DNA from: a virus
Virus record (IMG/VR): IMGVR_UViG_3300022924_000016
Span: 77,324-141,323 of that record
Strand: one strand, 5' to 3'
DNA: 64,000 bases
Position numbers and translations under genes: made by a program. Of this stretch, positions 11,501-63,483 are shown piece after piece. Below the pieces are notes generated by a model. That model saw only the letters and a list, made by a program, of their open reading frames with translations. It did not search any database and was not told where the DNA came from. Numbering within the stretch: position 1 is the stretch's first letter; each line of letters opens with the position of its first letter.

Positions 11501-13746
11501 CAACACAAGCGGAAGTAGCAGAATACCAAAATCTATTAAGAGGAGAAACGGGGGAAAAAGCACAACTTTATCAAAAACTTGACAATTTATATGAAACACT
11601 TTTATCCAATGGGAACAGTGAATCAGAAGCAGAAAGACTAGCTTTAGAATCGCTAACAGAGCAAGAAAGAAATCTTTTAAGACAGAGAAGTCCGAAAAGA
11701 AGAGAAGTGGAAAACTCTTCTGAATTAATAGTAGGCCAAAGGGTAAGCACTCTGACCGACCAAGGAACGGTTACTTCAATTGATGGAGAATTGGTAACTA
11801 TTGACTTAGACCAAAAAGGAACATTGACCGCAAACCCAAGACTTGTAGAAATTTTTACCGAGCCTTCAGTAGTAAACGTAGATAGATTAGAGCTGTTAAG
11901 GGAAAAATTATCAAATTGGAAAGTTTTAGACAGTTTCATAAATGAGGAAGGACTAACAATGGCTGACCTTGCAGAATTGATTCAACAGCAACAGCAGAAC
12001 ATTTCAGAGCAAGAAACCATAACTGAAATCACAGAAGATGATTCTTATGCTATGACTCAAGAATCTCAAGCAGGAGAAAAACTTGATGATTATACTCTGG
12101 CACAAAATGTCACAGGAAATGCCACAATAAAGAGAAATAAAGACGGCTCTGTGACTTTGCATCACATATCAGCACAATCTCTGGTAAATATCATAGGGGA
12201 GCCTTTCCAAGCTACAAGAAAAGGCAAGCCTATTGATATATCGGAAATCGCAATAGGCGATATAGTTACGACAGAAAGTGGATTAATGTTTTCAGTAGAG
12301 TCAGGAAACATCTTGAAAACGAGGAGTGAAGCATTTGATAACATCCCTCTTTTAGTAGTAAGAAGTGCCTCTACAAGCTGGACTTATGCAGATTTATACT
12401 ATTTTAACGGTTCGGAGTATGTAAAGAAACCTTCAGACTTTTTTGAAGATATCCAAGCAGATGAGATTTATAATCTTGAACAAGGCGCGCCTATAAGATT
12501 TGAAATTGACAGGCAGGACAGTTACACAAAACAGCTTTTAGATAAATACAAAAAATCACCCACGGAAGAAAATCGAAAAGCTTTAACAGACGGTATTAAA
12601 ATTTATTTAGTTTCAAAGGGTAGAAGAATTTCAACTTTAAAAGGAGAAAGAGGCGCATCACCTGATAATTTCAAGCTTTTAAGAGAAAAGGCTTTTGAAT
12701 TAGCTATACAGGACAGCTATGAAGCAGACCTCCAAGCAACTTCAACAGTTTCGGCAGTATTTTTAGGGAGCCCTCAATTTTTCATTTCAGAAGACGGGCA
12801 GTTAGAATCAAGACCATTCACAGAAACTTCATTAGATAAAGTTTTGACTAAAGGGTATATTTTAAATGGTGAAGTCGTAACATCAGAAGACCTACCACAA
12901 GTAAATACTTCCTACGTATCTAAGATTTCAAGAAAATACCCTCAAAGAAAAATGCCCTTGGTGGTTGTAAAAAGAGGTGAAAATTACGTAGCTTTGCCAA
13001 TATTTTTGAATAAATCACCTTTAGGGCAAAGAGGATTAGACATGGTGGAGAATGCCATAGAAACAGCCACGAGTCCAATAGAAGTTGCAAAGAACTTGAA
13101 TGCACTGATTAACCAAGAAGGTATCAGAACTGAAAAGGTACTACCGCAAGAAGTTACAGATGAAAATCTTGAAAGAATCAGAACAGCTTTTCAAGAACAT
13201 TTAATTTTCACAACAGCAGATGAAATAGCTTCACAAGATTATAACAAATCTAATCTTTTAGTGGATGCTCAGATGTATATTGACGCAGATAATCTAGAAC
13301 AGGTAATCAATGCTCCAAAAGTAAGAATAGATATTCAAAATATGCTTTTCAATCAAGAAGCAACCTTTGATACATCTGATGTCAAAACTTCGGTGGAAAA
13401 TGAATTAGATACTTTAGCAAAAGACCTTTATAACGATTTCATAAGAAATGCTTCCGCAACTTACGTAAATTCCAAAGGAGATATCATAGAAAATTCCTAT
13501 ACGGATGCCTTTGACGAAGAAAGTATGATGGAAGGGAGTTCACACCTTGATAAACTTCACAACATACGAATTTTAAGAGAAGCTTTCAAAGTGGATTTCT
13601 CTAAAAATAAGATTTTGAGGGATGCTGTAGGAAACGACAAGATTGAAAGAATAAAAATTCTTTTCGGTATTTTAGATAACATCAACAAACAAGTAAAGCC
13701 TAAAGAAGATATTCTGAAATCGGGCAATAACAACACTAAATGTTAA
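8494..13746 (+). CDS. Giant ejection protein with N-terminal Gly/Ala-rich hydrophobic segments; ends in Cys
   Basis: 1750 aa; AVIGGTAGVVYGAGAGIA and VLGGLSFTAGAIVS hydrophobic stretches; coiled coils; C-terminus ...NNTKC. Confidence 0.55.
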   Translation: MADNNLNALIDNKTISPELQAVEQDIRTRASTPQIDPSKTNGIISNIKTDNDYFYKAPINSPQKIALESKNYNINDAYAQLNDGTYIAKYDTYKEGANNNEIHAQNQGTGEKWLNGLAKFGGKTLNAVIGGTAGVVYGAGAGIADWKFDSVYDNNFSNWLGDLDTKMNYNLPNYYTQQETQKGLGGQLFTSNFWADKVLGGLSFTAGAIVSEGIWAYATGGTSLATTTARWSTRTAGMARIASGTSKFSRLLKNSLTVGEDVARVGTGLVDDSINVGRAVAFGKAGDALNTLRFTMTSAGYEASVEALQYKKEQEENFYRNFQEKNGRQPDQEEITAFQENLSSSANAVFGVNMALVGSSNLVTLGRVFNLKSPVKTGFGEMYNRALYGIGKATPSRLQSINRRILPFVQNAVTEGLYEEGGQSITSATAGKWLEHAYDTNNTKDSFDLAGALYENISHQYGSKEGWVENGVGIIIGLLGEAGTGNTRGGISRQVQEFENRSKLNETYTSKALSEHFLMMNRINGFNKQSEDAQKRGNLTEARIAQDGVIFSLLNNRYQLGDSVSDVGLDIEKALGTVTQDQLTEMGVETDLDTWKQEQSTAFSEVAKSFKKNRQFAEYIIGRNPVAGIQELESVNQLNGITDENGNSRINNQEALIQSLAFTMMGGQRSHTTMKEAVQEMSEILDYEKVKALDTISSLETVTQEKRNQVNIAINRSNSLEEQRGRLVEQLRNIQETTQGDTDTGTKVLRLSDRLAKLTNLIDSNNTELQQLADEVNLNNKTLEQTTGVNLNQGLDIQSISVEDLKNLDSNIKNLGSVMDAIKASNPENSARLEAILEEYKNSRKTFGAYQSTVLAFRDGKVNIDNINTLVGRKVLKKNKNLDSATKEWLSEILGNYSKQAVDALDELTKINNRTTVISNESIVDKRRRGDTLSEEEQTYYNENKTEIDTFMKREPILPVVPLPTAKTKLQYLRERLANLVSRSNNSLTFIGTSTDEFLLEKPTQAEVAEYQNLLRGETGEKAQLYQKLDNLYETLLSNGNSESEAERLALESLTEQERNLLRQRSPKRREVENSSELIVGQRVSTLTDQGTVTSIDGELVTIDLDQKGTLTANPRLVEIFTEPSVVNVDRLELLREKLSNWKVLDSFINEEGLTMADLAELIQQQQQNISEQETITEITEDDSYAMTQESQAGEKLDDYTLAQNVTGNATIKRNKDGSVTLHHISAQSLVNIIGEPFQATRKGKPIDISEIAIGDIVTTESGLMFSVESGNILKTRSEAFDNIPLLVVRSASTSWTYADLYYFNGSEYVKKPSDFFEDIQADEIYNLEQGAPIRFEIDRQDSYTKQLLDKYKKSPTEENRKALTDGIKIYLVSKGRRISTLKGERGASPDNFKLLREKAFELAIQDSYEADLQATSTVSAVFLGSPQFFISEDGQLESRPFTETSLDKVLTKGYILNGEVVTSEDLPQVNTSYVSKISRKYPQRKMPLVVVKRGENYVALPIFLNKSPLGQRGLDMVENAIETATSPIEVAKNLNALINQEGIRTEKVLPQEVTDENLERIRTAFQEHLIFTTADEIASQDYNKSNLLVDAQMYIDADNLEQVINAPKVRIDIQNMLFNQEATFDTSDVKTSVENELDTLAKDLYNDFIRNASATYVNSKGDIIENSYTDAFDEESMMEGSSHLDKLHNIRILREAFKVDFSKNKILRDAVGNDKIERIKILFGILDNINKQVKPKEDILKSGNNNTKC

Positions 13747-23616: not shown

Positions 23617-23844
23617 ATGGAAGATTTTAAATGGAAAACTTACGCACCTCATTCAAATAACAATGAAACTATGGATGATTTCTTGACCAATTACCTCGAT
23701 AACCATTGCGGGATAGACTTCACCATTGTTTATGAAGATGGATCGTATGCTGAGATAATTAATTCAGAAAAAGAGCATTATGCAATCCATGCCTCGGGAG
23801 ATGGGGATTTCTTTAACCATAAAATTAGATTTGAAAAACTATGA
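23617..23844 (+). CDS. Hypothetical protein
   Basis: ORF downstream of a promoter. Confidence 0.6.
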   Translation: MEDFKWKTYAPHSNNNETMDDFLTNYLDNHCGIDFTIVYEDGSYAEIINSEKEHYAIHASGDGDFFNHKIRFEKL

Positions 23845-24053
23845 AAACAGCAATGCAAGATATGATACAGTTTTTAGAAGAAAACTGCATGGATGGAGCA
23901 ACAGAACCAAAAGAAATTCTTTTTAAAGCTTTTGAACTCCAAGACAAAGAAAAAAAGCAAATTTCTGATGCTTGGGAATTTGGAAAGTCGGCTGGGTACG
24001 CTAATGCCGATTATACAGTAGGAGATTATTTTAACGAAATATTTAATTCATAG
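23841..24053 (+). CDS. Hypothetical protein, paralogue of 28074-28283
   Basis: Shared EENC.DG.TEPKEILFKA.EL..KEK.QI.DA. Confidence 0.7.
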   Translation: MKTAMQDMIQFLEENCMDGATEPKEILFKAFELQDKEKKQISDAWEFGKSAGYANADYTVGDYFNEIFNS

Positions 24054-27741: not shown

Positions 27742-28077
27742 ATGACAACAGAACTAACTAAAGACATTTGGAATAACTTCATAGCAATTCCATTCAACAA
27801 AAACAAGTCACACAACTTTTCGGTAAAAGATTTGAAAACAATCATAGAAAAGCATTTAGGTAAGGAAGAAGTAAAGAAACAGTTTAAACCTTTTAAAGTT
27901 GGAGAAGTTTACCAAACCAAAGGGCAAGTTTCAGAACCGTTCAAAATCGCGGAAATAAAAACTAAAATAAAAGAAGGCAAAACAGTTCCATATTACTTTA
28001 ACGGATTTTATTTAAACAGAGAACACTTAGGAATTTGTCCAATAAACGCAGAACAATTAATACAGAAAATAAGATGA
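27742..28077 (+). CDS. Hypothetical protein
   Basis: ORF; ATG at 27742 preferred. Confidence 0.55.
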   Translation: MTTELTKDIWNNFIAIPFNKNKSHNFSVKDLKTIIEKHLGKEEVKKQFKPFKVGEVYQTKGQVSEPFKIAEIKTKIKEGKTVPYYFNGFYLNREHLGICPINAEQLIQKIR

Positions 28078-28283
28078 AAACAATAATTCAAGAATTAATT
28101 GAGTGGATTGAAGAAAATTGCATAGATGGTGTGACAGAACCTAAAGAAATTCTTTTCAAGGCTATTGAACTTAAAGAAAAAGAAAAACAACAAATTATGG
28201 ACGCTTATCAATATGCAGAAGACGTTTGCTATGCAGAATCTGATTTTACCGCAGAGGAATACTATAATAAATACTTCAAATAA
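28074..28283 (+). CDS. Hypothetical protein, paralogue of 23841-24053
   Basis: Sequence similarity; ATGA overlap. Confidence 0.7.
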   Translation: MKTIIQELIEWIEENCIDGVTEPKEILFKAIELKEKEKQQIMDAYQYAEDVCYAESDFTAEEYYNKYFK

Positions 28284-32610: not shown

Positions 32611-34614
32611 ATGAATTTAGATAGTGCAATAGTCTGTGACATAGAATCGGTGGGATTTCTTGATAGTTTAAAGAGCTTTGAAGATTTACACGTATTCTCT
32701 TGCTGTTTTAAATCTGAGGGCACTTGGAAAATAAAGAGCACAAAATCTAAAGAAGACATACAAAAAGTTGTAGGTAATAAGAATAATACACTGATATTTC
32801 ATAACGGAATTTCATATGATAAGCCAGCACTTGAAATTATGGGTTTAGATTTTAAGGCTGAAATAATTGACACATTACCACTAAGCTACTATTTATATAG
32901 TGAAAGAGATAAGCACGGATTAGCCCAATGGGGAGAATTTTTCGGCGTGAAAAAGCCCGAAATAGAGTCGTGGACTGGTCTATCGTATGACGAATATCGA
33001 GTAAGATGTGAAGAGGATTGTAAGATAAATACAAACCTATGGATTATGATTTTAGATTATATGAGAGTGCTGTACGACAATGATGACGAGCTCATAATCA
33101 AAACAATAAGGTATTTGAATCATAAGGCTAATATGCTTTATATTCAAGACCAAAATCCCATATTAATAGATGTAGAGCAGTGCAAGAAGAATTTACAATA
33201 CTTAGAAGGGATAATTTCGGAGAAAGAATTGGAATTAAATGCCATAATGCCTAAAATCCCTATAACTTCTCGAAGAAGTAAGCCCAAGGTAATGTACAAA
33301 AAGACAGGCGACTTATCAGAGGCGGGGATAAAGTGGCAAGAACTGCTTAAAAACTGCAACTTAGAAGAAGATTATGAAGGACAGATAGATGTGGTTACAG
33401 GTTATACGGAGCCTAATTGCCAAAGTTCTGCACAAATGAAAAAATTTCTTATGCAGGAAGGTTGGGTTCCCACAATATTTAAAGATGGGGCAAATGGTAA
33501 AGTTCCTCAGCTAAGGGACGATGAGAAAAATTTATGCCCTAACATACAGAAATTGATAGAAAAAGTTCCAAAACTTCAATCACTTGATGGACTATCTGTT
33601 GCACAACACCGCTCAGGCTATTTAAAGGCTTTCTTAGCTCATATAAATGATAAAGGGTACGCCAAGGCTTGGGCACACTCTTTTACCCGCACATTGCGTT
33701 TAAAACACAGTAATCCATTTGTAAATCTCCCAAAACCTAAGTCTAAATATGGAAACCTAGTTAGAGCCGTTATGATTGCCCCTAAAGGGTATGTTTGTAT
33801 AGGTGCAGATTTATCAAGTATAGAAGATAAGTGCAAGCAGATTTCCATATTTTCTCTAGACAGAGAGTATGTAGAGTCTATGAACAGTAAGGGTTGGGAT
33901 GCACACTTAGCTCTGGGGCTAAAAGCAGGAATGTTTACAGAAGAGGAGGTTCAATTTTATAAATGGTTTAACTCTAAGGATAAAAAAGAAAATGATTACA
34001 CTTGCCCTAAGAGTTTTTCTCACCTTTCAGAGGAAGAGCAAGAAGTACTTTTTGACGTATTAAGTAAGAAAAGGGCTACAAGTAAGACAGGAAATTACGG
34101 ATTGACTTATGGATGTGGTGTGGCTAAACTTATGGAATCCACGGGATTAAGTAAAAAGGAGTCTGAAAACCTACATAAAGGATACCACGCCATAAATTGG
34201 GCGGTTAAAAAATTCGCCCAGGATAGAGTGGTTAAAACTGTCAAGGGTAGGAACTGGTTAAGGCTTAATAAAAAGGCAGGGGGGTTGTCAGAAGTAAATG
34301 AAACAACTTGGATATGGAACGAGTACTCTAATATGTGGCTATTTTTAAAAAATGATAAGGATAGGTTTTCTAGCTGTAATCAGAATTTTGGAGTGAAGGT
34401 TTTTGATGTTTGGAGTTGGTATTTGATTCAAGGAGGTATCACTCCCTCATATCAAGCGCACGACGAACAGCTCTGGTACTGTAAAGAGGAAGAAGTAGGA
34501 AAACATATCAAAATTATAGAGGAAAGTATTACAAAGGTTAATGAAATATTTAATCCTCCTATTCCTTTGGAGTGCGATTATAAGATAGGAAAGACATACG
34601 CGGACGTCCATTAA
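32611..34614 (+). CDS. polA: Family A (T7-like) DNA polymerase with 3'-5' exonuclease
   Basis: ExoI DIES, ExoII HNGISYD, ExoIII YRVRCEED, motif A GADLSSIE, motif B KRATSKTGNYGLTYG, motif C AHDEQ. Confidence 0.92.
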   Translation: MNLDSAIVCDIESVGFLDSLKSFEDLHVFSCCFKSEGTWKIKSTKSKEDIQKVVGNKNNTLIFHNGISYDKPALEIMGLDFKAEIIDTLPLSYYLYSERDKHGLAQWGEFFGVKKPEIESWTGLSYDEYRVRCEEDCKINTNLWIMILDYMRVLYDNDDELIIKTIRYLNHKANMLYIQDQNPILIDVEQCKKNLQYLEGIISEKELELNAIMPKIPITSRRSKPKVMYKKTGDLSEAGIKWQELLKNCNLEEDYEGQIDVVTGYTEPNCQSSAQMKKFLMQEGWVPTIFKDGANGKVPQLRDDEKNLCPNIQKLIEKVPKLQSLDGLSVAQHRSGYLKAFLAHINDKGYAKAWAHSFTRTLRLKHSNPFVNLPKPKSKYGNLVRAVMIAPKGYVCIGADLSSIEDKCKQISIFSLDREYVESMNSKGWDAHLALGLKAGMFTEEEVQFYKWFNSKDKKENDYTCPKSFSHLSEEEQEVLFDVLSKKRATSKTGNYGLTYGCGVAKLMESTGLSKKESENLHKGYHAINWAVKKFAQDRVVKTVKGRNWLRLNKKAGGLSEVNETTWIWNEYSNMWLFLKNDKDRFSSCNQNFGVKVFDVWSWYLIQGGITPSYQAHDEQLWYCKEEEVGKHIKIIEESITKVNEIFNPPIPLECDYKIGKTYADVH

Positions 34615-34635
34615 AGTTAATCTTTACTTAATATA

Positions 34636-34667
34636 TTTGCTTTTCTGAAATACTTTTTGTAAGTTTG
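34636..34667 (+). promoter_or_regulatory. Bacteroidota sigma-70 promoter
   Basis: TTTG 34636-34639, 20-nt spacer, TAAGTTTG 34660-34667. Confidence 0.7.
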
Positions 34668-34678
34668 CAATGTTGAAA

Positions 34679-34801
34679 ATAGAGAGGGCAAGTCTTTATG
34701 AGTAGACAAATTAAAAATAATAAGAATAGCAATAAAATATTTCAAAAAGCTTTCATAGATTGTTTTCACTTGCCCTGAATACAGTCCTTGGGAGCTTTTT
34801 G
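34679..34801 (+). ncRNA. Putative kissing-loop cis-regulatory leader RNA (copy 1)
   Basis: Hairpin loop GGGCAAG (34686-34692) is complementary to hairpin loop CTTGCCC (34769-34775). Confidence 0.65.
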
Positions 34802-34814
34802 TATTTAAGATAGT

Positions 34815-35543
34815 ATGGAAAAATTAACAAACGAACAAAGGCAAGTACTCTTAAGCGGTATTTTGGGAGATGGGCACTTAAAGAATGGAAGAGCAATTTT
34901 TAGTTGTATACACAAGGAGTATATGGAATTAAAAAAGAAGTTATTGGGGGATTTATCTCTACTTGTAGAAAGAAAACAAAACAGCGGTTTTAAAAAAGAT
35001 GCTTTCATCTATAAATTAGGTACTTTGGCACACCCTGAGATAAAAGAGATGGAAAAATACTCTACAAAACGAATTCTTGAAGAGATTGACGAGTTAGGTA
35101 TTGCGCTATGGATTGCAGATGATGGCTCAAGGCACAAGAAGAATAACTTTTATAATATAAATACACACGCATTGCCAAGATATGAAGAGGAGCAACACTT
35201 ACTACCATTCTTTAACAGCATCGGCATATTTCCTAGAATTACCACAGAAACTAAAAAAGATGGTAGATGCTTTTCTTACCTATATATCCCTAAGTGGGAG
35301 GGAGCTATGGAACTTTCGAGAATTCTAAGAAAACTAGAGTTAAATTGCTATGATTATAAGCTTATGCCTATTGAAATGGAGGAGGCATATTTTAGAAACA
35401 AAGATTTAGAAGAGTTCAAAATGGCAAATAGTTATGGGAGAACTAAAATAATTAAGAATGGAATGGGGCTGACATATAAGGACATACTTCATAAGAATGT
35501 CACATCAACAGAAATGAGAATTACTAATAGCGCAAACATATAA
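34815..35543 (+). CDS. Free-standing LAGLIDADG homing endonuclease
   Basis: VLLSGILGDGHL and GIALWIADDGS motifs. Confidence 0.85.
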   Translation: MEKLTNEQRQVLLSGILGDGHLKNGRAIFSCIHKEYMELKKKLLGDLSLLVERKQNSGFKKDAFIYKLGTLAHPEIKEMEKYSTKRILEEIDELGIALWIADDGSRHKKNNFYNINTHALPRYEEEQHLLPFFNSIGIFPRITTETKKDGRCFSYLYIPKWEGAMELSRILRKLELNCYDYKLMPIEMEEAYFRNKDLEEFKMANSYGRTKIIKNGMGLTYKDILHKNVTSTEMRITNSANI

Positions 35544-46592: not shown

Positions 46593-46642
46593 TATAAAAT
46601 TTACACATTTTGTAAACCAATTATAGTTTCGTATTTTTTTTT

Positions 46643-46740
46643 TCAGATTCTTACTGGCATATTTATCTGATATAAACGAATTATTTATTGAGAGACTCTT
46701 TTCATTAACTGTGCCAGCGGTTTTTGATTGGGGTTTTCTT
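46643..46740 (+). ncRNA. Putative kissing-loop cis-regulatory leader RNA (copy 2)
   Basis: Loop CTGGCA (46654-46659) is complementary to loop TGCCAG (46712-46717). Confidence 0.55.
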
Positions 46741-46757
46741 GTTTTTAAGCCGAAGTA

Positions 46758-47864
46758 ATGGAGCATTCAGAGTTTTTAAAAAGATTAGAAAAAAATGAAC
46801 ACTTTGTAAGTGGGTATTTTAAAGTTATAAGTAAATATCAATGTGATAAATGTAAAGTACTGGTTGAAACACCTTATGGGGTTTGTGCATGTGATCCTAG
46901 AAATTTATATGAGCATAATACAAGACCCACAATTATGACAGCGGTTGATAAAAATAGTTACTATTCAAATTATATTAAAGAACACAATGAAAACTATAAA
47001 AATAATAACTTTGAAATTGTTTCAGACTTCATAGGTTTTAATAAGGAGATATTTGTTAAAACAGAATATGGAGTTCATAAAACAACTGCCAATAGCTTAA
47101 AACGAGGAGAGATGCCTGGAATAAACAGTGCTGTTAATAAGGTAGATTATGTTCATAACCAATTAATTGAAACAAACGAATATTACAGAAAAGGACTATT
47201 TAAAGTAATAAGTTATAAAAGAGGAAAAGTCACTTTAGAAGACAGTTTTGGGTTGTGTACTATGTTATTAAATGATTTGGTTAACAACTGTCAACCCACT
47301 ATTTTAAGTGCTGTGGACAAGACAGATTATATTAAAAATAAATTTAAGGATTTAATACACTATGGTAATTATGACTATTCTAAATTTGTATATGATTGTG
47401 CTAGATGTAAATCTATAATAATCTGTAGAGAACATGGTGAATTTTATCAAACCCCCTCAAAACATTTAGGTAACCAAGGGTGTCCTAAATGTGGTAGTAT
47501 AAGAACTGGAAAATATATGCTTGAAAACCCAAATGGTTGGAATTATACGAATTGGCAAAATGCAGGAGATAGAAGTGATAATTTTGACTCATTTAAAGTA
47601 TACATAATCAGGTGTTGGAATGAGCAGGAGGAGTTTTATAAGATAGGAAAGACTTTTGTAACTGTAGAAAGTAGATTTAGGTTAAAACTATTGATGCCGT
47701 ATAATTATGAAATTATTGAACAGTTTATTTTTAATAGCTCAAAAGAAGCATCCAGGTATGAGTTACACTTACAAAAATTGAATAAAAAGTCTACCTATAA
47801 ACCTTTTATTTTATTTAATGGGTCAAATGAATGCTTTAATAAATATTCTTTAACAGTCCTATAG
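46758..47864 (+). CDS. Free-standing GIY-YIG-like (T5orf172/MUG113-type) endonuclease with repeats and Zn-binding motif
   Basis: Three N-terminal repeats ending SAV.K.DY; CREHGEF.Q.P..HL...GCPKC; VYIIRC...FYKIGKT...RF...E..L...F.G.NECF. Confidence 0.7.
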   Translation: MEHSEFLKRLEKNEHFVSGYFKVISKYQCDKCKVLVETPYGVCACDPRNLYEHNTRPTIMTAVDKNSYYSNYIKEHNENYKNNNFEIVSDFIGFNKEIFVKTEYGVHKTTANSLKRGEMPGINSAVNKVDYVHNQLIETNEYYRKGLFKVISYKRGKVTLEDSFGLCTMLLNDLVNNCQPTILSAVDKTDYIKNKFKDLIHYGNYDYSKFVYDCARCKSIIICREHGEFYQTPSKHLGNQGCPKCGSIRTGKYMLENPNGWNYTNWQNAGDRSDNFDSFKVYIIRCWNEQEEFYKIGKTFVTVESRFRLKLLMPYNYEIIEQFIFNSSKEASRYELHLQKLNKKSTYKPFILFNGSNECFNKYSLTVL

Positions 47865-52796: not shown

Positions 52797-52804
52797 TATA
52801 TTTG
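52797..52804 (+). promoter_or_regulatory. -7 promoter element for the RNA ligase
   Basis: TATATTTG. Confidence 0.65.
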
Positions 52805-52829
52805 CTGAGTAATATTTAAAACAATAAAA

Positions 52830-54089
52830 ATGAAGTTATCAGTTAATGAACACAGTAAGAACTATGCTTGTTCTGTTGTAGAAATTAAAGATTTGTTTCC
52901 TATTGAAGGGGCGGATAAAATATTAAGAGCAGTTGTAAACGGTAATAATGTAGTAGTTCCAAATACAACACAATTGGGATCAAAAATGCTTTACTTTGTT
53001 TCAGGAACAAAACTATCTTCTGACTATTGTCATAAAAATGATTTGTATGATAAGTCTGAAGAGAACTACAATAAGGATAAACGAGGTTTTATAAGTTTCA
53101 ATCAAAAACGCGTCAAAGCAATTAAGCTTAGAGGTATTGTGTCAGATGGTATGTTGATGCCTTTAACTTCACTATTGGCTTTTTTAGAAGATGTAAATAT
53201 TAGTGGTTTTAAAGCGGGCGATGAGTTTACAGAAATTAATGGAAATACTTTATGTGAAAAATATGTAGTACCCGTGAAATCTAATGGGCAAGGTTCTGTA
53301 AAAACACCTAAAGAAAATAAACTCAAAGATTTGATTATAGAGAGCCAATTTCGCTTTCACCACGAAACTGAACATTTTGTAAAGAACATAGACAAATTTA
53401 ATCTAGAAACAGAGATTATCATAACTAGAAAATTGCACGGCAGTAGTTTAATACTTTCCAATGTTTTAGTTGCAAAGAAACTTTCTCTCAAAGAGAGGGT
53501 TTTAAACTTTTTTGGCGCTAACATACCTAAGACAGAATATGGATATATTTTTTCATCGGGAAAACCAAAGGGAAAATTACCTAAGGGAGTTGAATCTGAA
53601 ACAAACAAATGGGAAACACCAAACCCAAGCTACTATAATTCGGATATTTGGGCAAGAGCTTATAATGAAAACAAGCACTGTCTTGAAAAAGGTATCTCTT
53701 TATATGGCGAAATTGTGGGTCAAGGTATTCAAGGAGAACAGTTCACTTACAATATAGAGCATGGTATTTTTATTTATCGTATAACTCAAACATCCGTTGA
53801 TGGAAATGTGTATGAGTTTTCTTGGGAACAAGTTAAAAGATATTGTGAAAAATATGGTCTAAATTATGTCCAAGAATATTTTTCAGGAAAGGTTAAAGAA
53901 TTCGGAGAAGATTTCCTAGAAAGTTTGAGAGAAAAATATTTAAATAAGAGTTACAAGGACTGCAAGATTGATGAAGGCGTATGTATTAAAATAAGAAGCA
54001 CGGATGAAATCTTTAAGTTTAAAAGTCCTAACTTTATAAAGATGGAATCAGATAATCAAGAAAATGAAGTTCAAGAAACAGAAAGCTAA
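52830..54089 (+). CDS. RNA ligase (Rnl2/DRB0094-like) with N-terminal OB-fold
   Basis: PIEGADKI, VKAIKLRG.VS.GML, motif I TRKLHGSS, LYGEIVG.GIQ, DEGVCIK, FKFKS..F. Confidence 0.85.
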   Translation: MKLSVNEHSKNYACSVVEIKDLFPIEGADKILRAVVNGNNVVVPNTTQLGSKMLYFVSGTKLSSDYCHKNDLYDKSEENYNKDKRGFISFNQKRVKAIKLRGIVSDGMLMPLTSLLAFLEDVNISGFKAGDEFTEINGNTLCEKYVVPVKSNGQGSVKTPKENKLKDLIIESQFRFHHETEHFVKNIDKFNLETEIIITRKLHGSSLILSNVLVAKKLSLKERVLNFFGANIPKTEYGYIFSSGKPKGKLPKGVESETNKWETPNPSYYNSDIWARAYNENKHCLEKGISLYGEIVGQGIQGEQFTYNIEHGIFIYRITQTSVDGNVYEFSWEQVKRYCEKYGLNYVQEYFSGKVKEFGEDFLESLREKYLNKSYKDCKIDEGVCIKIRSTDEIFKFKSPNFIKMESDNQENEVQETES

Positions 54090-54091
54090 AT

Positions 54092-54229
54092 ATGAACATA
54101 AAAATAACACAAGAACAGCATTTAGAGTTATGTAAGTGGGAATATGAAGAGTACTTATTTGGCTCACAATTGCACGGTAATGCTGTCAAGAATTTAGGTG
54201 AGTATATTGTAAAGCTCTTGAAGAAATAA
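54092..54229 (+). pseudogene. Truncated Pol-beta nucleotidyltransferase (RlaP-like) fragment
   Basis: 45 aa with YLFGSQLHG; the expected DxD that should follow is absent. Confidence 0.45.
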
Positions 54230-54234
54230 TTTCT

Positions 54235-54266
54235 ATTCCCCATTCAGAAATGTTTGGGGATTTTTT
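54235..54266 (+). terminator. Intrinsic terminator
   Basis: ATTCCCCA...TGGGGATTTTTT. Confidence 0.7.
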
Positions 54267-54341
54267 ATTTTAACAATATTTTAAGTTTTTAATACCGAAT
54301 TTATTGTTATCTTTGACTATTAATAATTTAAAAAGTAAAAT

Positions 54342-54506
54342 ATGCACTTAGATCAAGTAATCAAAGACTTAAAAGTTAAACAGTATGGGTATAATGACGT
54401 AGTAGAAGTGCTTCAATCTGTAACGGCTATAAGCAACTCTAAAATTCGACCAAAGGAACTTAAAAAGCACGATGTTATAAGAACTTTTGAAGTCCGCAAT
54501 AAATAA
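54342..54506 (+). pseudogene. N-terminal fragment paralogous to 55887-56300
   Basis: ..LQSVTAISNSKIRPKELKKHDVIRTFEVRNK* vs ..INSITSIETKRPIKLRKGDVIVRECFTTTKKRP; own TATCTTTG at 54308-54315. Confidence 0.6.
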
Positions 54507-54519
54507 TAAATTAACACAT

Positions 54520-54550
54520 TTTGTTTTTAAGATATTAGTCTTTATATTTG
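54520..54550 (+). promoter_or_regulatory. Bacteroidota sigma-70 promoter
   Basis: TTTG 54520-54523, 19-nt spacer, TATATTTG 54543-54550. Confidence 0.7.
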
Positions 54551-54560
54551 CATTAGTATA

Positions 54561-54665
54561 AAGCTGTAGTATCTCACAATAAACAGTTTAATTATTTACA
54601 AACCTATTTATTTACAATAAGAAGCGAGGTGAGATACGCTTTTTAACATGTAAGTAGATAGGTTT
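54561..54665 (+). ncRNA. Putative kissing-loop cis-regulatory leader RNA (copy 3)
   Basis: Loop TATCTCAC (54570-54577) is complementary to loop GTGAGATA (54629-54636). Confidence 0.65.
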
Positions 54666-54678
54666 TATTATTATAAAA

Positions 54679-55395
54679 ATGTGCGAAAATAAAAAGAAAT
54701 GTAATGCCTGTCTTGAGTATAAAACCCTAGATCAATACTCAATAAATTCAGGTCTCAAAAGTCTGAAAAGTGTTTGTAAAAACTGTGAAAAATCACGCAA
54801 AAAGGTTGTCTGTGACAGTAGAAGATCTGCTTTAGGTGAGGTGGGGAAAATTTGTAAAATTTGCAACATAGATAAGCCCCTATCAGATTTTAAACTTTTA
54901 AAAAGCGGCCTTTTAGGAGTAGTCTCAAATTGCAAAACTTGTAAACTCCCTAAAAAAGAACCTATAAAAAGAAAGCTTATATGTGAGTGTGGTAATGAAA
55001 GGAAAGCCAGGAGAAAATTATGTGATAACTGTCAAGAAGAATTAAATAGAAATATAACTGAAAAGTTATGTAGAAAATGCAATAGCATTAAATCCTTAGA
55101 AGAATTTGGTAAAGGTAAATACTGTAAAACCTGTAATCAAGAGGAGTACTATAAAAAGACAGGTAGAGTAAGAAAAGAGCCTAGTTATACAGAAGATGGT
55201 AGAAAAGTCTGCTCGAGATGCAAGGAAACTAAAAACCTGGAGATGTTTTCAAAAGATGGGCACAGACACAGATCTGAATGTAAAATTTGCAGAAGCAATT
55301 TTAGGAAGTTACCAGAACAAAAAGAAAAGGAAAAATTAAATTATAGGAATTACATTGAGAGAAATTACGATAGATACAGAGAATCTTCAAAATAG
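54679..55395 (+). CDS. Multi-CxxC zinc-ribbon repeat protein (N-terminal half of a split HNH endonuclease)
   Basis: Repeated KxCxxC..K.L..F....CKxC units. Confidence 0.7.
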   Translation: MCENKKKCNACLEYKTLDQYSINSGLKSLKSVCKNCEKSRKKVVCDSRRSALGEVGKICKICNIDKPLSDFKLLKSGLLGVVSNCKTCKLPKKEPIKRKLICECGNERKARRKLCDNCQEELNRNITEKLCRKCNSIKSLEEFGKGKYCKTCNQEEYYKKTGRVRKEPSYTEDGRKVCSRCKETKNLEMFSKDGHRHRSECKICRSNFRKLPEQKEKEKLNYRNYIERNYDRYRESSK

Positions 55396-55828
55396 AGCTT
55401 TAGCTAAAAGAAAAAACAATAACCCTCTTTTTAAATTAACTTGTAGCGTCAGGGGTTTAATTCAAGGATCATTTAAATCAAATCTTGGTAATAAGTTTAA
55501 AAAGAACTCTAAAAGCCAAGAAATTCTAAGTTGTAATTGGGAAGAATTTAAAAATCACATTGAATCTCAATTTTTACCTTGGATGAATTGGGAAAATCAC
55601 GGTAGATGTGATGAGTTAGACTATAATTGTACATGGCACTTGGATCACATTGTTCCAATGAAATATGCAAAAACAGAAGAAGATATTTATCTTTTAAATC
55701 ATTGGTCAAACTTTCAACCTATGTGTGGTTATAAAAATATGTACCAAAAAGCCGACACATTTTATCCCTGTACTAATCTAGAGCTGAGAGTAACTTTTCT
55801 TGAAAATGAAATTTTATCATTAAATTAA
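55355..55828 (+). CDS. HNH/EndoVII-like nuclease domain (C-terminal half, +1 frame)
   Basis: PLFKL...R, EILSC..EEFK.HIESQF..WMNWEN.G, WHLDHIVP, NHWSNFQPM; weak TTG start. Confidence 0.7.
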   Translation: MREITIDTENLQNRALAKRKNNNPLFKLTCSVRGLIQGSFKSNLGNKFKKNSKSQEILSCNWEEFKNHIESQFLPWMNWENHGRCDELDYNCTWHLDHIVPMKYAKTEEDIYLLNHWSNFQPMCGYKNMYQKADTFYPCTNLELRVTFLENEILSLN

Positions 55829-55886
55829 CTTTTATATTCTTAATAATAGTCTATCTTTGGATTATTAATTTTAAAAATATTTAATT

Positions 55887-56300
55887 ATGCCCAGTAAAGA
55901 GCAAGTTTTAGCAACTGTCAAGAATGAAGCACATTCAGGTGCTATGGTTAAACACTTAATCAACTCAATAACTTCTATTGAAACTAAGCGTCCAATAAAA
56001 CTCCGCAAAGGAGATGTTATAGTCAGAGAATGCTTTACAACTACCAAGAAGAGGCCATATGTTCTGGTAAAAGTACTGAAAGAATTCTCTCTTGCACTAC
56101 CCTTATCTACAACAGAAGACTCTTTAAATTTATGTGAGAGTGATTCAAGATTCTTCAGAACAGGGTTTTTCTCAAACCAATTAGTGACTATAAAGAATCA
56201 AGACGCTATGGATAACTTTGCAGGTATTTACGATAATCCTAGAAGTTTAAACAAGGCTGTAAAAATTATGAAAGAATTCCTAGCTAAAAATCTAAGATAG
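55887..56300 (+). CDS. PemK/MazF-like endoribonuclease with N-terminal extension
   Basis: LRKGDVI...KKRPYVLV...ALPLST...QLVTI...G and a C-terminal helix; TATCTTTG at 55852-55859. Confidence 0.6.
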   Translation: MPSKEQVLATVKNEAHSGAMVKHLINSITSIETKRPIKLRKGDVIVRECFTTTKKRPYVLVKVLKEFSLALPLSTTEDSLNLCESDSRFFRTGFFSNQLVTIKNQDAMDNFAGIYDNPRSLNKAVKIMKEFLAKNLR

Positions 56301-56310
56301 TAAACAAGAA

Positions 56311-56351
56311 AATTCCCCTACCTAAACCAATTAAGGCTCAAGTAGGGGATT
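56311..56351. terminator. Hairpin at the convergence of the + and - transcription units
   Basis: TCCCCTAC...GTAGGGGA inverted repeat with A/T flanks. Confidence 0.65.
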
Positions 56352-56357
56352 ATTATT

Positions 56358-56615
56358 TTAGAGTAATTCTAAATTTGCTTTTTGTATTCTTGTATCGGCG
56401 AAATAAGACTTCAAAAGGATGTGCAATTGACTGAGTTCGCTATAATCTAACTCTAATCCTTTAAACTTTACACCATTACCTGTATCTTCGATTTCAAAAG
56501 CCATTTCTCCTGGATCAATCCATAAATCATTATCTGAGTAATATAAAATATGCTGTCCATTTAATTCTTCATAGTCATATTCGTGCTTACCATCTTCAAA
56601 TACTGCTGTCTTCAT
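56358..56615 (-). CDS. Hypothetical protein
   Basis: ORF. Confidence 0.55.
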   Translation of the reverse strand: MKTAVFEDGKHEYDYEELNGQHILYYSDNDLWIDPGEMAFEIEDTGNGVKFKGLELDYSELSQLHILLKSYFADTRIQKANLELL

Positions 56616-62961: not shown

Positions 62962-63483
62962 TTAAATTTTTGATTTATCGATTGCCAAACCTGCATTAGG
63001 GTAAGACCTACCGCTTTTTATATTTGATATTATTTGCTCTGAAACATTGTATTTTTTGGCAATATCTCTTTGCTTTATTTTATTAGATATAAGAATTCTT
63101 ATTTCAAAAACTTGTTCGTCGGTTAGGGACGAATTATAGCAATCTTTAAAAGTTTTACTCATAAATCCGTTTTTATAAGCGTGGTTTATATTTTCTGATT
63201 GACTACACCATTCTAAATTACAAACTTTATTATTGGACTTATTTCCATCTTTATGATTAACCTGTGGTTTGTTTTCTGGGTTAGGAATGAATGCCGTAGC
63301 TACAACTCTATGCACCAAAAGGTCTTTTCTTTTGCCTTTATGATACATATAGCAAATCTTATATCCTTTAACGTCTCCGTAAGAAATAACGTTTTTGTGC
63401 ATTCTTTTAGTAGAAAATATTACGCCCAAATCATTAACCAAATAATCCAAAATTTCTCCATTAACTTTTACAACTTTTTCCAT
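62962..63483 (-). CDS. HNH endonuclease with C-terminal HTH
   Basis: VHRVVA.AFIPNPENKPQVNHKDGNK.NN...NLEW....EN..HA; QRDIAKKYNVS..IISNIK. Confidence 0.9.
   Translation of the reverse strand: MEKVVKVNGEILDYLVNDLGVIFSTKRMHKNVISYGDVKGYKICYMYHKGKRKDLLVHRVVATAFIPNPENKPQVNHKDGNKSNNKVCNLEWCSQSENINHAYKNGFMSKTFKDCYNSSLTDEQVFEIRILISNKIKQRDIAKKYNVSEQIISNIKSGRSYPNAGLAIDKSKI

Follow-up and report, generated by a model that had tools for sequence, protein, structure and literature searches.

Guanidine-IV (mepA-motif) riboswitches consist of two hairpins, the second an intrinsic terminator, and their apical loops kiss. The loop of the terminator hairpin takes part in this contact, which is reported to compete sterically with the complete terminator through a short linker, giving antitermination without strand overlap, a mechanism supported by single-molecule Förster resonance energy transfer (PMC7736828; PMC11611296). 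A leader of comparable layout was identified in a 64,000-nucleotide stretch of DNA (the window), the right-hand 64 kb of the 141,323-bp virus record IMGVR_UViG_3300022924_000016. It comprises a promoter, a hairpin (P1) and a second hairpin (P2) whose loop is complementary to that of P1, and it precedes a gene for a zinc-ribbon/HNH homing endonuclease. This leader, called copy 3 here, is very probably a selected, functional RNA structure. With moderate confidence, we propose that it would act mainly as a transcription attenuator limiting nuclease expression.

Guanidine-IV is the closest analogue, but the element is not a member of that class. Copy 3 shares the paired hairpins; its P1-P2 linker measures 10 nt and its P2 26 bp. 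Guanidine-IV riboswitches have conserved loop nucleotides, a guanidine-dependent contact and guanidine-related genes such as sugE. In contrast, independent copies of the leader have no loop sequence in common, no Rfam model matches, and the genes encode HNH, LAGLIDADG and T5orf172-like endonucleases or a primase-like protein and are not guanidine-related. The kissing match spans 6 to 9 Watson-Crick pairs in the family, with duplex energies of -4.6 to -14.3 kcal/mol (-11.7 kcal/mol in copy 3), from which the contact is predicted to be probably stable without a ligand.

Control at the RNA level is also described for T4 mobE, in which an intrinsic terminator limits the transcripts of a homing endonuclease (PMC2790892). 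The brake proposed here would likewise act on a selfish phage nuclease gene. Matched loop pairs, the defining feature of the present leaders, are not mentioned in the account of T-even regulation consulted (PMC2790892) and are not known from it otherwise. The mobE terminator lies inside the gene, which has no promoter of its own, whereas the promoter here is upstream of both hairpins. Other T-even hairpins, such as those of I-TevI and Aeh1 mobE, sequester the ribosome-binding site, and a late promoter is often located within them. In copy 3, by comparison, P2 ends short of the AUG by 13 nt, and neither hairpin contains the promoter.

Fully complementary hairpin loops of about 7 nt set specificity in ColE1 RNA I/RNA II, R1 CopA/CopT, pT181, pIP501 and P1/P7 c4. 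The loop sequences of such antisense control RNAs differ among related elements through compensatory changes, and formation of a leader terminator depends on the pairing in pT181 and pIP501. Those systems use two RNAs, from opposite strands or a processed precursor, whereas a single sense transcript holds both loops of the present leader, with 52 nt between them. The phi29 pRNA resembles the leader in having two complementary loops that covary among related phages. It is a single-copy packaging RNA with 4-nt loop contacts that form only between molecules, whereas the leader occurs in several copies per genome, each heading a gene.

The leader family has no Rfam model and no description that we found in the literature. 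No Rfam model matched anywhere in the window at the gathering threshold, and a search of 54480-54720 at E-values up to 10 returned chance matches only. A literature search found no prior description of kissing or loop-loop leaders for homing endonucleases.

Structure of the leader

The initial annotation had placed the promoter, P1, P2, both loops, an 8-bp loop match and the spacing to the ATG. Every one of these positions holds when the sequence is read base for base (Table 1). Segment GTGAGATA in the P2 loop exactly complements TATCTCAC in the P1 loop over 8 bases, and a ninth pair, G54569-C54637, is possible. Loop shuffling reached 8 complementary bases with P = 2.8e-4.

Table 1. Features of the copy-3 leader and its cassette, and related leaders. 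Positions refer to the window unless stated otherwise; ORF, open reading frame; G000, this phage's genome; G001 and G003, related genomes.
Feature	Position	Strand	Description
Extended -33 promoter element AAATTAACACATTTTG	54508..54523	+	includes TTTG at 54520-54523
-7 promoter element TATATTTG	54543..54550	+	19-nt spacer after TTTG
Hairpin P1	54561..54589	+	AAGCTGT 54561-54567 / ACAGTTT 54583-54589; 7 bp, one G-U
P1 loop	54568-54582	+	15 nt; holds kissing segment a, (G)TATCTCAC, 54569/70-54577
P1-P2 linker	54590..54599	+	10 nt
Hairpin P2	54600..54665	+	26 bp overall
P2 basal stem	54600-54616 / 54649-54665	+	17 bp, two G-U
P2 upper stem	54618-54626 / 54637-54645	+	9 bp, one G-U
P2 loop AGGTGAGATA	54627-54636	+	10 nt; kissing segment b, GTGAGATA(C), 54629-54636/37
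U-rich tract TTTTATTATTAT	54663..54674	+	starts within the last P2 pairs
ORF1, homing endonuclease	54679..55395	+	238 aa; five CxxC...CxxC zinc ribbons; matches phrog_1035 (endonuclease VII) positions 50-125 and HNH phrogs
ORF2, same endonuclease	55355..55828	+ (+1 frame)	HNH motif (WHLDHIVP...N); phrog_1035 positions 107-216
Inserted cassette	54335..55851	+	54-aa ORF, promoter, kissing-loop leader, split HNH gene
Sister copy 1	34632..34814	+	before LAGLIDADG gene 34815-35543; loops GGGCAAG / CTTGCCC, 7 nt, exact complements
Sister copy 2	46593..46757	+	before gene 46758-47864 for a 368-aa phrog_681/T5orf172-like endonuclease; loops CTGGCA / TGCCAG
Fourth copy	genome position 40.6 kb		before BT4734/PriCT_1 primase-like gene
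Primase-site loops, G000			P1 GTGGAAAGG; P2 CCTTTCCAC
Primase-site loops, G001			P1 GTAGCACT; P2 AGTGCTAC
Primase-site loops, G003			P1 GTGGAAACC; P2 GGTTTCCAC

RNAfold returned P1 and P2 as the minimum-energy fold of the + strand, at -34.6 kcal/mol (z = -4.9; 0/200 shuffles as stable). P1 is present in both the minimum-energy and centroid folds, and a constrained fold yields the identical hairpin. P2 alone reaches -27.4 kcal/mol and is the strongest local hairpin within the 4-kb neighbourhood. The - strand folds only to -22.5 kcal/mol (z = -2.4) because four G-U pairs turn into A-C mismatches there, and this strand-specific folding identifies the element as an RNA feature of the sense strand. 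When the RNA was folded at growing lengths, the helix between segments a and b was the minimum-energy structure at transcript ends 54638 and 54648, and P2 dominated from 54656.

Four related genomes were folded on both strands, and the longest complement of each stable hairpin's apex was sought within 120 nt upstream. Complements of at least 9 nt were found for 3 of the 107 non-coding hairpins preceding an ORF start, against 0.2 expected from shuffled loops and 0 in the downstream control. The three are copy 3, copy 1 and the primase leader, whose P2 hairpins (-25 to -27 kcal/mol) also rank highest in stability. A DNA-level signal (nuclease target, recombination site or replication origin) would suit an element at the edge of a mobile cassette. 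However, the G-U pairs make the fold strand-specific, and compensatory changes among related leaders (below) preserve RNA pairing, which also counts against a chance inverted repeat. Chance is further opposed by the low probabilities from the hairpin scan and loop shuffling, and we regard this pair of explanations as extremely unlikely.

The window promoters fit the pattern TTTG / TAnnTTTG, the established Bacteroidota consensus, which was taken as given. From the known geometry of such promoters, transcription of copy 3 probably starts near 54554-54556. The leader is about 125 nt long, and promoter and leader together occupy window 54508-54678. In this phage an ordinary leader measures some 10 to 25 nt. 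P2 and the ATG at 54679 are separated by 13 nt, a spacing equal to that in copy 1 (34801 to 34815). A second HNH gene (62962-63483, minus strand), put forward in the initial annotation as an internal control, does have TATATTTG 10 nt before its ATG and no leader.

The AAATTTACACNTTTG-type extended -33 element occurs at 46597 (copy 2), at 54508 and at genome positions 48414 and 51341, each time 19 nt before TAnnTTTG. It is thus common to two endonuclease cassettes and two large genes of the genome's left half, and it may mark one temporal class of promoters. The extended -33 element of copy 3 is also found in copy 2 and in the leader of L145. Two other candidate promoters were not accepted: a sigma-70-like TTAACA-17-TATTAT within P2, and TAGGTTTG on the minus strand at 54606, which has no properly spaced TTTG.

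Family members and loop pairs

The family was defined from 19 leaders, nine in the main comparison table and ten metagenomic. Four copies occur in the genome of this phage (G000), three in its closest relative, a 144-kb IMG/VR contig (G001), and one in another relative (G003). The copies share almost no sequence. Copy 3 has the family's promoter, a loop match of at least 6 nt, a terminator-like P2 and an exchangeable nuclease cassette. It had been annotated as the third kissing-loop leader before homing endonucleases, and this was borne out: copies 1 and 2 share its layout and have unrelated loop pairs. The association with endonucleases stands for the LAGLIDADG, phrog_681 and HNH genes and is incomplete as a description of the family, which also precedes a primase-like gene. 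Further instances were found before a T5orf172-like gene (L037) and a GIY-YIG-like gene (L145). The genes behind the leaders thus represent at least four unrelated nuclease families (HNH, LAGLIDADG, T5orf172-like and GIY-YIG) and a primase-like protein.

A leader is present upstream of 10 of the 11 examined metagenomic homologues of the HNH gene and absent from L171. These ten leaders all have the promoter, P1, P2, a U-tract and matched loops. Their loop sequences are CTACGAA, GTACGAA, ATGCAA, GTCGAACA (three times), CCGCCAAG, TTCGGAC, GTCAGACA and GGTCTCAA. Each independent copy examined has its own loop pair, and one pair recurs in three metagenomic leaders that are close relatives.

Loop-loop covariation is formally supported. 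Across an alignment of five homologous leaders, 97.5% of the kissing-helix cells are paired, and both partners have changed in 3 of the 8 pairs. None of 500 shuffles reached the observed score, and slid partner columns were about 50% paired. Homologous leaders in other phages thus retain the match through compensatory changes, and the kissing pairing is supported at the family level. The primase-site leaders of G000, G001 and G003 are likewise homologous, with P2 stems that align and loop pairs that differ (Table 1). The genes behind them are homologues in G000 and G003 (38% identical), and that of G001 is unrelated to them. Immediately upstream of the primase-site leader, G003 has a tRNA-Asn gene (L029 13814-13888); there is no tRNA at this site in G000 or G001.

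Within this phage the loop pairs are orthogonal, with 6 to 9 matched bases within a copy and at most 4 between copies. This bears on whether the unit is a small RNA gene, whose terminated leaders would pair their loops between molecules or with nascent leaders and so give dose-dependent, cassette-specific feedback like that of plasmid copy-control RNAs and the P1/P7 c4 RNA. The unit is a complete promoter-to-terminator cassette, loops are replaced faster than stems among related leaders, and four copies in one genome are orthogonal. Copy 1 and L145 also have the fully complementary 7-nt loops of the ColE1 RNA I/RNA II kissing geometry. Yet orthogonality is expected anyway of unrelated sequences, intramolecular pairing is kinetically favoured, and no stand-alone promoter-P1-P2 unit without a downstream gene turned up in the four genomes. 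A small RNA gene is therefore an unlikely reading.

P2 stems are 17 to 29 bp long, which exceeds what a terminator needs. This length would suit an RNase III processing site, at which the near-continuous 26-bp duplex of copy 3 would be cut to free the start region or set mRNA stability, as in T7 early mRNAs and the lambda N leader. However, such processing gives no role to P1, the loop match or the U-tract, and internal loops break many P2 stems, making it a very improbable function.

The position of the hairpins within the transcript is also constrained. P1 lies within about 5 to 10 nt of the predicted transcript start in most copies, and throughout the family the core P2 stem is followed by the start codon at a distance of 8 to 21 nt. 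One sub-family (L168, L172, L173, L174 and L169, forming alignment A5, and L037) has a conserved AGUA/GAA internal loop in P2 that is loop E-like. An additional helix, P0, pairs 5'-GGCUUAAA with UUUAAGCC just before the AUG, ending 3-4 nt upstream, and is clear in L168, L173 and L174. Together with the kissing loops, these two features give the sub-family a three-way-junction fold. Copy 3 has no AGUA/GAA loop. Its sole P0 option is a weak AU-rich helix (54551-60 / 54672-81) that would cover the AUG, and P0 was not put in the copy-3 model; copies 1 and 2 have no P0.

These features agree with a 5' stabiliser or translation-control domain, in which P2 would be read through and the P1-P2 kissing fold would shield the mRNA 5' end from nucleases. 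The fold might also restrict ribosome access to the AU-rich start region 13 nt past P2; T-even homing-endonuclease genes such as I-TevI and Aeh1 mobE are controlled by hairpins at the ribosome-binding site. Against this, the start codon is never inside P2, and P0 is missing from copies 1 and 2, and the weak P0 option of copy 3 lies in part ahead of the probable start of transcription. The G-rich stem end and U-tract of the 19 leaders would also be left unexplained. We consider both the shielding and the ribosome-access roles unlikely as the main function.

Several candidates were rejected as family features or members. A leader peptide is confined to copy 1, as a 26-codon ORF (34699-34779) running from the P1 3' strand to the P2 loop, and is absent from copies 2 and 3. 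The match at window 12953-13028 is the palindromic TACGTA, and the segment falls within a large ORF. At G001 30394 the candidate is a long palindrome next to a tRNA, and G003 47713 is coding on the other strand. A search of metagenome contigs with the primase-site P2-stem pattern recovered G001's own source contig only. A promoter-pattern scan of IMG/VR gave 119 loci, almost all of them chance AT-rich matches, with one real instance, L145.

Nuclease gene and mobile cassette

The annotated identity of the downstream gene as a zinc-ribbon/HNH endonuclease is supported, and the gene itself proved to be split into two overlapping ORFs. All 43 full-length metagenomic homologues of ORF2 are single ORFs of 280-476 aa, so the gene is either frameshifted near 55380-55395 or misassembled. 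This region adjoins an A-run. Decay of the nuclease, programmed frameshifting or faulty assembly could each account for the split. Protein searches with ORF1 found no match in GenBank phages, IMG/VR or a 5.8-billion-protein set, and ORF2 had none in IMG/VR. At the DNA level, nothing in GenBank phages matched 52800-56400.

The cassette is absent from G001, where its flanks (54237-54334 and 55852-56360) map to the overlapping intervals L001 8875-8971 and 8945-9454. The overlap arises because the native promoter, TATCTTTG, occurs twice in the window, at 54308 and 55852, and these copies bound the cassette. The 54-aa ORF (54342-54506) is a diverged duplicate, 33% identical, of the N-terminus of a 137-aa gene at 55887-56300. 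The duplicated promoter and 54-aa ORF look like traces left when the cassette arrived by homing or recombination.

Other copies show the same linkage. G001 has copy 2 at 97% identity over a 231-nt stretch spanning the leader. Between G000 and G001, promoter and leader of copy 2 are 93.4% identical and the nuclease gene 94.9%, compared with 74%, 78% and 44% for the flanks. Judged from these alignments, the leader and the nuclease gene make up a single mobile cassette. The two phages are otherwise syntenic, but their family-A DNA polymerases (window 32611-34614; G001 92735-94822 = L019 12735-14822) are only 23% identical, and the promoter 3' of the polymerase gene is nearly identical in both. 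Behind this promoter, where the present phage has copy 1, G001 encodes a different nuclease (T5orf172-like, 491 aa) with its own loop pair, TGGCGG/CCGCCA. Diverged polymerases, a near-identical promoter and different cassettes suggest module replacement at a homing hot spot.

The virus record has a G+C content of 33%. The nearest named relatives at the protein level are Flavobacterium phages; an A1-like DNA transfer protein is 47% identical. A 201-nt direct repeat with 70% identity occurs at window 23834-24034 and 28067-28267, its copies 4.2 kb apart. Upstream of the cassette, 3' of the RNA ligase gene, G001 (L001 7263-8853) has two extra genes relative to window 54090-54240. They encode a 228-aa protein and a 303-aa protein, the latter judged by eye to combine a kinase P-loop with a phosphatase-like half. 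Their equivalent in the window has been lost, leaving a 45-aa remnant ORF (54092-54229), and with the loss of these two genes the RNA-repair module of this phage is incomplete.

Proposed attenuation model

The 3' end of P2 in copy 3 reads ...GATAGG and is followed by TTTTATTATTAT. With this G-rich end and U-tract, P2 resembles an intrinsic terminator. In 19/19 leaders the 3' end of P2 is G-rich and leads into a U-rich tract, weakest in L170, and the nine leaders of the main comparison have 5 to 7 U in the 8 nt after P2 (counted by hand from the sequences).

In the proposed attenuator, most transcripts from the strong promoter would end at P2, yielding a leader RNA of about 115 nt. The nuclease would be encoded only by read-through transcripts, and the selfish gene would thereby be held at a low dose. 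The loop-loop contact would form once the P2 loop exits the polymerase and would then set the read-through fraction. The linker is short relative to P2, which matters for steric competition: with 10 nt joining P1 to a 26-bp P2, the kissing complex and the last basal P2 pairs should strain each other, and termination should be weakened. This is the weakening proposed for guanidine-IV, here with no need for a ligand.

Several points weigh against this model. Linkers are at most about 12 nt in about 11 of 17 measured leaders, and copies 1 and 2, G001_92k, L166 and L168 have linkers of 18 to 35 nt; long linkers would allow kissing and a full P2 to coexist, so steric antitermination is not a general rule. 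The contact could equally speed terminator folding. The P2 stem of copy 3 is AU-rich with a 10-nt loop, and a simple consensus terminator scan, whose rule admits loops of 3-8 nt only, did not flag it. The constant proximity of the start codon to P2, and the pairing of bases before the AUG by the sub-family's P0, point to control of translation or stability as well. Finally, the leader and ORF1 of copy 3 have no homologue in the collections searched, so the covariation applies to the family and not to the copy-3 sequence itself.

An extension of the attenuator model is a self-addressed, dose-sensing form, in which the cis contact would allow read-through and accumulated terminated leaders would compete in trans and shut it off. 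Each cassette would then have a private loop code and limit itself without protein, ligand or cross-talk. This extension is quite doubtful. If true, it would be an RNA-only analogue of plasmid copy control on homing-endonuclease cassettes, and the sub-families with the loop E-like motif and P0 would have riboswitch-like three-way-junction complexity.

Being selfish genes, homing endonucleases need to remain almost silent to spare the carrier phage. To our knowledge, how they are silenced has been described mainly for the T4 family. In the leaders described here, a compact RNA module of promoter, hairpin and terminator-like hairpin with a pairing loop travels with the nuclease gene in its cassette. 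If the loop contact sets passage through the terminator, as the attenuator model proposes, the module would be a ligand-free natural counterpart of the guanidine-IV mechanism, a portable expression limiter for mobile genes and a ready source of RNA parts that are orthogonal to one another. The family merits an Rfam entry, which would aid the annotation of cassette boundaries in Bacteroidota phage genomes.

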